Assembly (NCBI RefSeq): GCF_045037415.1
Contig: NZ_CP173438.1
Length of the DNA: 64,000 nucleotides
Reading direction: 5' to 3' (one strand)
From: Escherichia coli
GTDB lineage: Bacteria > Pseudomonadota > Gammaproteobacteria > Enterobacterales > Enterobacteriaceae
This document shows positions 44,278 through 46,374 of the stretch, piece after piece; the first letter of the stretch is position 1, and the number at the start of each line of letters is the position of its first letter. The translations under genes and the position numbers were made by a program. The notes below the pieces were generated by a model. It saw only the letters and a list, made by a program, of their open reading frames with translations, searched no databases and was not told the origin of the DNA.

Positions 44278-46374
44278 TTAGCGGAAATTGACGCTACGGT
44301 CGCTGGTCATGTCATACAACTGGAACTTACGCCCAAGTTGCTGACCACCGTCACGCGTCAGCGGCGTCCAGCCAATCGCCGCACGGCTGCGTGTCGGGCC
44401 AGACGAGAAGAGATCCAGCGGTACAGAGACATACACGCCTTTGGTGAAGTCCCCTTCGCCGTACTCCTCTTTCGAAACATTCGTGATCGTGGCATAGCCG
44501 CCAACCACCACGCCGCTGTCAAAGCGTTTAGCGATCTCCAGCGTGCCGCCTTTATCCCCAGCCAGATACTGCCCGACGCTCGCTTTCACTAACACGTCCT
44601 GGGCGAAAGATGGCGTCCAGTACGCGGTCAGATGTCCGGTTTTCACGCTGTAATCGGTGAATTTCATCATATCTTTTGCGCTACGCCAGTCGCGCTGTTT
44701 AACGTAGTTGGCATCCAGACCAAACGCCCAGTTGCTATCCAGCGGGCGATACAACACTTCTGCCCCCACGCCGCCAAACATGGTTTCGAGATAACCTCCG
44801 TAGACCTGACCGTAGAAGCCGTTGCCCAGATGCTGGAAGTAGTTGGCTTGCAGGTTATTCACATAGACATCATTCTGCACATACTCGCGCACATGGGTAC
44901 GCACGCGCGGTAAGTGCGAGTCCTGCGGTGGATTGGTGTAGTTAAACTTGTCGTAGTTGTTGGCAAGGTTAGCAAACAGGCTGCCAGTGGTCAGCAGATG
45001 GTCCGTCAGCCACAAATCCGCCGTTCCCATCACGCCCAGCTGATACATGTAAAAGTTTTCCGGGCCACCGATCGACTGGTTCAGCACCGGATCGATATGG
45101 AAATCAAAGCGTGATTTGTCGATATACCAGCCCTGCTCGGTGGACTTCGGAACCACTGGCTCGACGCGTTTTTGCGCCAGCTTCGTTTCGTGGCCCAACG
45201 GCTCTCCGGCGAGATGATTTTTCAGGCTGGCGACATCGGTTTCCGTCGTCACCTGTGGCATATTAAGGCGATTTTCCGTAATGCGGATCGTTTTTATCCC
45301 ATCCGGCAGATCGTTCATCACGATCCGATTAGCACGGATGATCCCTTCGCGCGGATCACGATATTTCACCTGCTCGCCGGTAACATACAGCGTATCGCCT
45401 TTCGCCTGGATCTGCGGATCGGCAAGTCCGGCATTGTATTTCAACAGCGTTAACTGATTCGCCACCACCGAATGCTGCAAAATGGCATCCTGCGGCTGCG
45501 GTTGATATTGCGGGCGGGCGTTATCGTTGTAAGACGGGCGCAGATCGTTAAAGTTGGTGCGCAGCGTGACGCCAAACATAAAAGTGTTGCCACGTTCATA
45601 GCTAAGGTTAACGTCGGCCCAATCGGTAACGCGATAAATCGCCCCGACGTTAAACTTACTTTTTTGCTCCAGCTTTCCGGCAAAATCCTGCTGATAATTA
45701 TTGCCTTCATACTCCAGTTTCAGACGCAGCGGTTGCTAGGGCGTCTGGTATTCCACGCCGCCAAACAGTGAGGCCGGGCCGTGGAACATCTGGCTGCCGT
45801 CGATAGATCCCGCCTGTTTGTAGCTGTTATCGCGATAGCAATATTTATCACTGGCTGAACAGAGCGGATTTTTCACGTTACCGCTGGTGCCCAGATATCC
45901 CCAGCCCAGGCCGAGTGTAAAATCGAACGGCCCCCAGGCTTTGCTGGCAACAAGATATTCCGCATCAAACAGCCCCGTACCGCCGATATCCCGCGCACCA
46001 ACCGCCACTTGCGGCAGCCAATAACTCTCTTCCCACAAACGCAGTTTGAGATCGAAGGCTTTATCTTTATACGTTTGATCGCCAGAGAACGCTTCGACGC
46101 TGCTGTACTGCCGGGTGCGCACGTCGGTGTAGCGCAGCGTTGTTTCCAGCCACGGGAAGAGTTGCACTGAAGCTGAGTAATAACGGTACTGATCGTTATC
46201 GCGATAGTTCAGGCTCAGCTCCCCTTCCCGCGCCATGCGCGCGGTGGGCGTTTGTAATAATCCTACGCCACCGAAATCCGATTGCGACGGACCAATGGGC
46301 GCAGGATATGTTTCGCCGTAGCAAGCTGTGCTAATACCCAGCGCCAGTAAGCTAAGCAGATGTCTTTTTTTCAT
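44278..46374 (-). pseudogene. yjbH: yjbH-like outer-membrane exopolysaccharide protein interrupted by an in-frame TAG
   Basis: ORFs 44278..45579 and 45736..46374 are in the same frame and separated by a single amber codon at 45736-45738 (...YQTP*QPLRL...). Confidence 0.7.

Follow-up and report, generated by a model that had tools for sequence, protein, structure and literature searches.

The yjbH gene of the window (the whole 64-kb stretch of Escherichia coli DNA that was analysed) is interrupted by one amber codon, and we consider it highly probable that it is a nonsense pseudogene, which arose by one clonal TGG to TAG mutation and with which the function of YjbH was lost. The change would be a single recent point mutation, G638A, fixed in the papGII+ sublineage L1a of ST131 clade C2 or in a node very close to it. 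Both the absence of full-length YjbH and the loss of its function are what we infer from the sequence. The RefSeq/PGAP flag had already made the pseudogene known, and the one thing new is the link of the mutation to L1a, which it marks; the smaller additions are the ancestral TGG codon, the proof that the stop is real, its place in the fold and its complete co-occurrence with the L1a marker. Taken alone, the finding is of little weight: clonal pathogens carry many such lineage-specific pseudogenes. It could nevertheless be put to use, with yjbH G638A serving as a single-base typing marker of ST131 C2 L1a.

An earlier, sequence-only reading of the window had proposed that a TAG splits yjbH into two ORFs that share one minus-strand frame. 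The sequence, its translation and the ORF list all bear this out, and the position of the stop, its amino-acid context, the gene name and the assignment to the yjbEFGH operon were likewise correct, as judged from the sequence and from the RefSeq annotation of a relative. The coordinates are collected in Table 1. Translation of the whole frame gives 699 codons with the natural stop at the end, and the TAG is the sole internal stop among the 698 codons that precede it. It occupies codon 213 (T at 45738, A at 45737 and G at 45736), in the minus-strand context GGC GTG GAA TAC CAG ACG CCC TAG CAA CCG CTG CGT CTG AAA CTG GAG TAT GAA GGC. The ORF list gives a 212-aa product for 45736..46374 and a 433-aa product for 44278..45579, but position 45579 is merely the first ATG past the TAG: the open frame itself runs unbroken from 45735 to 44278, over 485 sense codons and the natural stop. 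The probability of finding a 485-codon open frame by chance is about (61/64)^485, or roughly 1e-10. The intact allele matches the Pfam family YjbH (PF06082, formerly DUF940) as one continuous domain, over residues 30-691 and model positions 1-657/658, with E=3.8e-271. A post-stop frame that is too long for chance, in a stretch that is homologous throughout to one continuous YjbH domain, indicates a genuinely interrupted gene, and the notion of two chance ORFs is thereby ruled out.

Table 1. Features of the yjbEFGH locus, in positions of the window
Feature	Position	Strand	Remarks
yjbH pseudogene	44278..46374	-	Full 698-codon frame and natural stop; last gene of yjbEFGH; single internal stop
Amber TAG replacing Trp213 (TGG)	45736..45738	-	G638A in gene coordinates; C>T at 45737 on the plus strand
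Residual N-terminal ORF, 212 codons	45739..46374	-	N-terminus resembling a signal peptide; roughly three quarters of the N-terminal barrel (12 strands, predicted)
Remainder, putatively untranslated, 485 codons and stop	44278..45735	-	End of the N-terminal barrel, periplasmic middle domain and whole C-terminal gated barrel
yjbG (GfcC family), intact	46374..47111	-	Stop overlaps the yjbH start; WP_000595518.1 in both TAG and TGG strains
yjbF (lipoprotein), intact	47108..47746	-	WP_001296632.1 in both TAG and TGG strains
yjbE (threonine/serine-rich small protein), intact, first gene of the operon	47861..48103	-	

What was the codon before it became a stop? Alignment with intact orthologues identified the ancestral codon as TGG, which was among the candidates named in the sequence-only reading. 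The closest intact allele is that of the ST131 strain Ecol_AZ159 (WP_000745756.1, 698 aa), which shares 2096 of 2097 bases with the gene in the window; the sole difference lies at base 638, where Ecol_AZ159 has G and the window has A, turning TGG (Trp213) into TAG. Codon 213 is also TGG in yjbH of K-12 BW25113 (WP_000745776.1 in K-12), 56 differences away from the window allele, in the divergent allele of RMDEC465, 104 differences away, and in all other alleles examined besides the TAG allele. The paralogue GfcD has Trp as well at the corresponding position (residue 215 of GfcD aligns with residue 213 of YjbH), inside a strongly conserved motif. Intact YjbH and GfcD, both of 698 aa, are 65% identical over 696 aa, and the orthologues and this paralogue are all single 698-aa proteins. 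Neither the intact protein nor either fragment matched a family in NCBIfam, which has no model for it, and no solved structure of YjbH or GfcD turned up when the PDB was searched by sequence. Sequence and gene context thus place yjbH of the window in the YjbH/GfcD family, as what appears to be a non-functional pseudogene member. Compared to intact E. coli YjbH, the locus (pgi - yjbEFGH - psiE) and the length of the frame are the same, while the TAG at codon 213 leaves 212 of the 698 residues to be made. GfcD (YmcA), which belongs to the group 4 capsule operon gfcABCDE-etp-etk, shares the conserved Trp but differs in locus and system.

The TAG allele is present in many public genomes. In a set of 5,426 complete E. 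coli genomes, the region of a 61-mer centred on the TAG was matched in 5,312, of which 53 carried it exactly, all the others having one or more mismatches. Over the entire gene, 100% identity to the window was seen in at least 40 complete genomes. In public contigs (NCBI, ENA and Logan assemblies), the exact 212-aa product was found on 595 and the exact 433-aa downstream ORF on 515. The 53 TAG genomes come from the USA, Japan, Switzerland, Thailand, Kazakhstan, Italy and elsewhere, and from human, dog and wastewater sources. There is a single yjbH copy per genome. In NZ_CP103672.1, where yjbH is 100% identical to that of the window, PGAP annotates it as a "pseudogene" with an "internal stop". 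This flag, the ancestral TGG and the 698-aa length of the orthologues and the paralogue support the first of the options that the sequence-only reading had listed, a nonsense-mutated pseudogene.

Over the full 64 kb, the window is 99.995% identical to that same chromosome, which belongs to the O25b:H4-ST131 strain 4433. A single substitution and two 1-bp indels set them apart, and on this sequence comparison the window is assigned to an E. coli ST131 chromosome. In strain 4433, the DUF4132 gene that adjoins metG is interrupted by a resistance region bounded by IS26, with blaCTX-M-15, blaOXA-1, aac(6')-Ib-cr, truncated catB, aac(3)-IIe and an AAA ATPase gene as cargo. This insert matches exactly the description of TnMB1860, a transposon with blaCTX-M-15, blaOXA-1, aac(6')-Ib-cr, aac(3)-II and truncated catB3, whose insertion in the DUF4132 gene by metG is a marker of L1a (Biggel et al., 2022; PMC9334617). 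L1a is a subbranch of the largest papGII+ sublineage of ST131 clade C2, and is the most abundant and globally disseminated (PMC9334617). Since the window ends short of the metG locus, the marker was tested in relatives. A 120-base probe over the IS26/chromosome junction was found in 46 complete genomes, and all 46 also had the TAG; none had reverted to TGG. Seven of the 53 TAG genomes are without the exact junction. One of these, Ecol_AZ146 (the sole one examined), has its transposon, internally rearranged, at this very insertion point, and it is labelled "clade C2, C2 L1a" in the supplement of PMC9334617. The strains 2/0, 4/0, 4/1-1 and 4/4 have kept TGG; strain 2/0 is the reference of a separate sublineage, L2 (PMC9334617). 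W213* thus appears to have arisen once, at the base of L1a or near it, perhaps slightly earlier, and to have been inherited clonally. Neither PMC9334617 nor its supplements mention yjbH, and our literature search found no paper reporting a yjbH stop in ST131. As in other lineage-specific nonsense pseudogenes of clonal pathogens, we see a single disabling point mutation, vertical inheritance, use as a clade marker and a PGAP flag; the particular feature here is the complete co-occurrence (46/46) with the TnMB1860 junction of ST131 C2 L1a.

To place the stop in the fold, we took the domain boundaries of the published GfcD model and mapped them onto YjbH through the YjbH-GfcD alignment. In the AlphaFold-based model of GfcD, an N-terminal 12-stranded barrel (residues 19-278) is followed by a periplasmic middle domain (279-423) and a C-terminal 13-stranded barrel with a lateral gate (424-698); GfcD is predicted to be a two-barrel outer-membrane protein, with the lateral gate serving a lipid-anchored polysaccharide (PMC11494523). 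On this model, the stop in YjbH falls inside the predicted N-terminal beta-barrel, not at a domain boundary, and it removes about 70% of the protein. Translation would end after residue 212, within the N-terminal barrel of a predicted two-barrel outer-membrane protein, and the resulting fragment would be missing the final strands of this barrel, the middle domain in the periplasm and all of the gated C-terminal barrel. Assembly by the BAM machinery is not to be expected for a barrel whose C-terminal strands are missing. Such an incomplete fragment would not assemble into the outer membrane, and the function of YjbH would be lost. The part of the gene beyond the stop has undergone no further decay and is 100% identical to the intact allele, as expected of a young mutation; it gives no independent sign of relaxed constraint.

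The rest of the operon fits the family, with yjbE, yjbF and yjbG directly upstream on the same strand. The gene order in strain 4433 is pgi, yjbE, yjbF, yjbG, yjbH, a gene for a small periplasmic protein, psiE and malG. Because yjbH closes the operon and is followed by a convergent gene, no polar effect on yjbE, yjbF or yjbG is expected. A promoter and terminator scan around the yjb operon was uninformative, returning fewer sites than shuffled sequence. Could GfcD stand in for the missing protein? In strain 4433, cspH abuts and slightly overlaps appA (NZ_CP103672.1 3286635-3288145; L015:36636-38146), and gfcABCDE-etp-etk, which lies between these two genes in K-12, is absent from that site. 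With the gfc cluster absent at its usual locus, there is no GfcD there to replace YjbH. By megablast, gfcD was found in 3,715 of the 5,426 complete genomes.

If the loss of YjbH is accepted, its fixation may still be read in more than one way. The same mutation could have been fixed since the loss of YjbH was itself advantageous, by raising Rcs signalling and colanic acid or by altering the surface, and not by hitch-hiking; we regard this as unlikely. There is experimental precedent in K-12, where yjbEFGH mutations, two independent ones in yjbH included, are a candidate cause of mucoidy under predation (PMC8540638), and where an IS1 insertion in the yjb operon leads to colanic-acid-dependent sedimentation resistance (PMC8117528). 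These laboratory mutations hit the same operon, but they come from experimental evolution and have a phenotype, whereas the allele studied here is a natural one of a clinical lineage. In line with an advantage are also the colanic acid cluster, free of pseudogene flags in strain 4433, the lack of reversion in the junction-bearing genomes, and the standing of L1a among the papGII+ sublineages (PMC9334617). Against this, a single clonal event cannot part selection from hitch-hiking with papGII/hly/cnf1 and the chromosomal blaCTX-M-15. It is a further proposal, and in our view a quite unlikely one, that W213* is not passive: the loss of the YjbH barrel, with YjbE, YjbF and YjbG still made, could raise Rcs signalling and colanic acid, in the manner of yjb operon mutations of K-12. 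If so, a perturbed envelope, or the removal of a surface polysaccharide or receptor, could aid the global success of L1a, and any change in Rcs or colanic-acid behaviour through yjbH loss would be of moderate relevance to the biology of ST131.

Independent truncations of yjbH elsewhere were also considered in favour of an adaptive loss. We examined other truncated or variant YjbH proteins (P0003, P0017, P0018 and P0027). There is a Q210* change (CAG>TAG) in a 98.8%-identical allele (L007:1876-2505), a C179* change (TGC>TGA) in a 97.4%-identical allele (L010:2501-3037) and a frameshift allele of Shigella dysenteriae, with a product of 217 aa on 147 contigs; in addition, several lineages have 652-aa YjbH products that start at Met47. 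Sporadic nonsense alleles are, on the other hand, expected for any non-essential gene across hundreds of thousands of genomes. The idea that the 90% protein cluster holds many independent YjbH truncations was rejected, as most of these are contig ends and not mutations (L008, L009, L011 and L012): metagenome and short-read contigs that stop near yjbH codons ~178 and ~209 inflate the count of truncated alleles.

A reading in which no function is lost, through read-through or suppression, was another option named in the sequence-only reading. The amber codon would be read through, by a suppressor tRNA or by context-dependent near-cognate decoding, and yjbH would remain functional. We consider this very improbable. 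The 485 codons downstream of the stop are perfectly intact, as read-through would have it, but the gene is one base away from an intact allele, so the intact frame simply reflects the youth of the mutation. In E. coli, a C directly after UAG makes for one of the weaker termination contexts, and some basal read-through of amber codons does take place. To our knowledge, amber suppressors are rare among natural isolates of E. coli, and basal read-through usually stays far under a few percent; no tRNA gene was found within the 64-kb window. At the site of the Trp shared with GfcD, a read-through product would most likely have Gln, Tyr or Lys. Finally, the stop is not conserved outside one recent sublineage, the other alleles examined having TGG and the TAG 61-mer being present in only 53 of the 5,312 matching genomes, and this argues against programmed read-through. 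Pyrrolysine decoding of UAG was rejected as well, since E. coli, as far as we know, does not use it, and so was phase variation, as there is no repeat tract at the TAG site.

It is hardly more credible that yjbH has become a natural split gene, in which the N-terminal fragment of 212 aa would work and so would a C-terminal protein of 433 aa made by restart. Gene callers do give both ORFs as separate proteins on hundreds of contigs, and GfcD subjected to limited proteolysis gives two stable pieces of about 30 kDa, which is consistent with separable barrels (PMC8592465). The break at residue 213, on the other hand, lies within the N-terminal barrel (19-278) and not between domains. There is no in-frame ATG, GTG or TTG between 45735 and 45579, which makes the ATG at 45579, 52 codons past the stop, the first possible restart codon, and inspection of the sequence by eye showed no obvious Shine-Dalgarno motif upstream of it. 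The restart product would be without a signal peptide, so it could not reach the outer membrane, and the orthologues and GfcD are undivided proteins.

The remaining option of the sequence-only reading, a sequencing or assembly error in a genome that truly has TGG, is virtually inconceivable and can be taken as refuted: single-base errors do occur in assemblies, as the two 1-bp indels of strain 4433 relative to the window may illustrate, but no other support for an artefact was found, and the identical TAG is present in the 53 complete genomes of independent laboratories, countries and sequencing platforms and, by its exact 212-aa product, on some 600 contigs in public data. It is moreover a substitution at a site free of repeats (CCC TAG CAA) rather than a homopolymer indel, and it co-segregates perfectly with an independent lineage marker.

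The two ORF fragments of yjbH can mislead pan-genome and "unique protein" analyses. In the ST131 isolate SCB34, YjbH was given as a "unique" protein relative to RS218 (PMC5728477), an entry that might be artefactual if the yjbH ORF was split or variant in the gene-content comparison.

Some further observations were made in the window and its relatives. The two indels between the window and strain 4433 are at 8314 and 29989, with one extra C in strain 4433 at each. The first makes the second-copy lpdA (6934-8352 in the window) "frameshifted" in strain 4433, while in the window the gene is intact, with 472 aa; it probably reflects either a change particular to one strain or an error in the assembly of strain 4433. 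The second is in the dinF-lexA intergenic region, and the sole substitution, at 32954, is in plsB. Other CDS of strain 4433 annotated as "frameshifted" are torS, a galactitol PTS IIC gene and a gene of the O25 antigen cluster (L015:31634-34377, L017:40793-42147 and L016:46904-47966), as well as the counterpart of a small hypothetical gene at 63038-63356 of the window, between metH and a hypothetical neighbour.

Positions 1-12296 of the window hold a second, accessory 2-oxoglutarate dehydrogenase/succinyl-CoA ligase set (E1, odhB, lpdA, sucC and sucD), neighboured by a DASS anion symporter, an Ldh-family oxidoreductase and a pair of a sensor kinase and a sigma-54 regulator. This set may correspond to the KguS/KguR alpha-ketoglutarate utilisation island of uropathogenic E. 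coli, which it resembles. Rfam matches above the gathering score were found at 48299-48448 (+), 48514-48584 (-), 40695-40765 (-), 36465-36535 (-) and 50487-50683 (+). They comprise an STnc430 sRNA and a REP-derived naRNA4 element in the yjbE-pgi intergenic region, two further naRNA4 elements, in the malE-malF and lamB-malM intervals, and a lysine riboswitch upstream of lysC.
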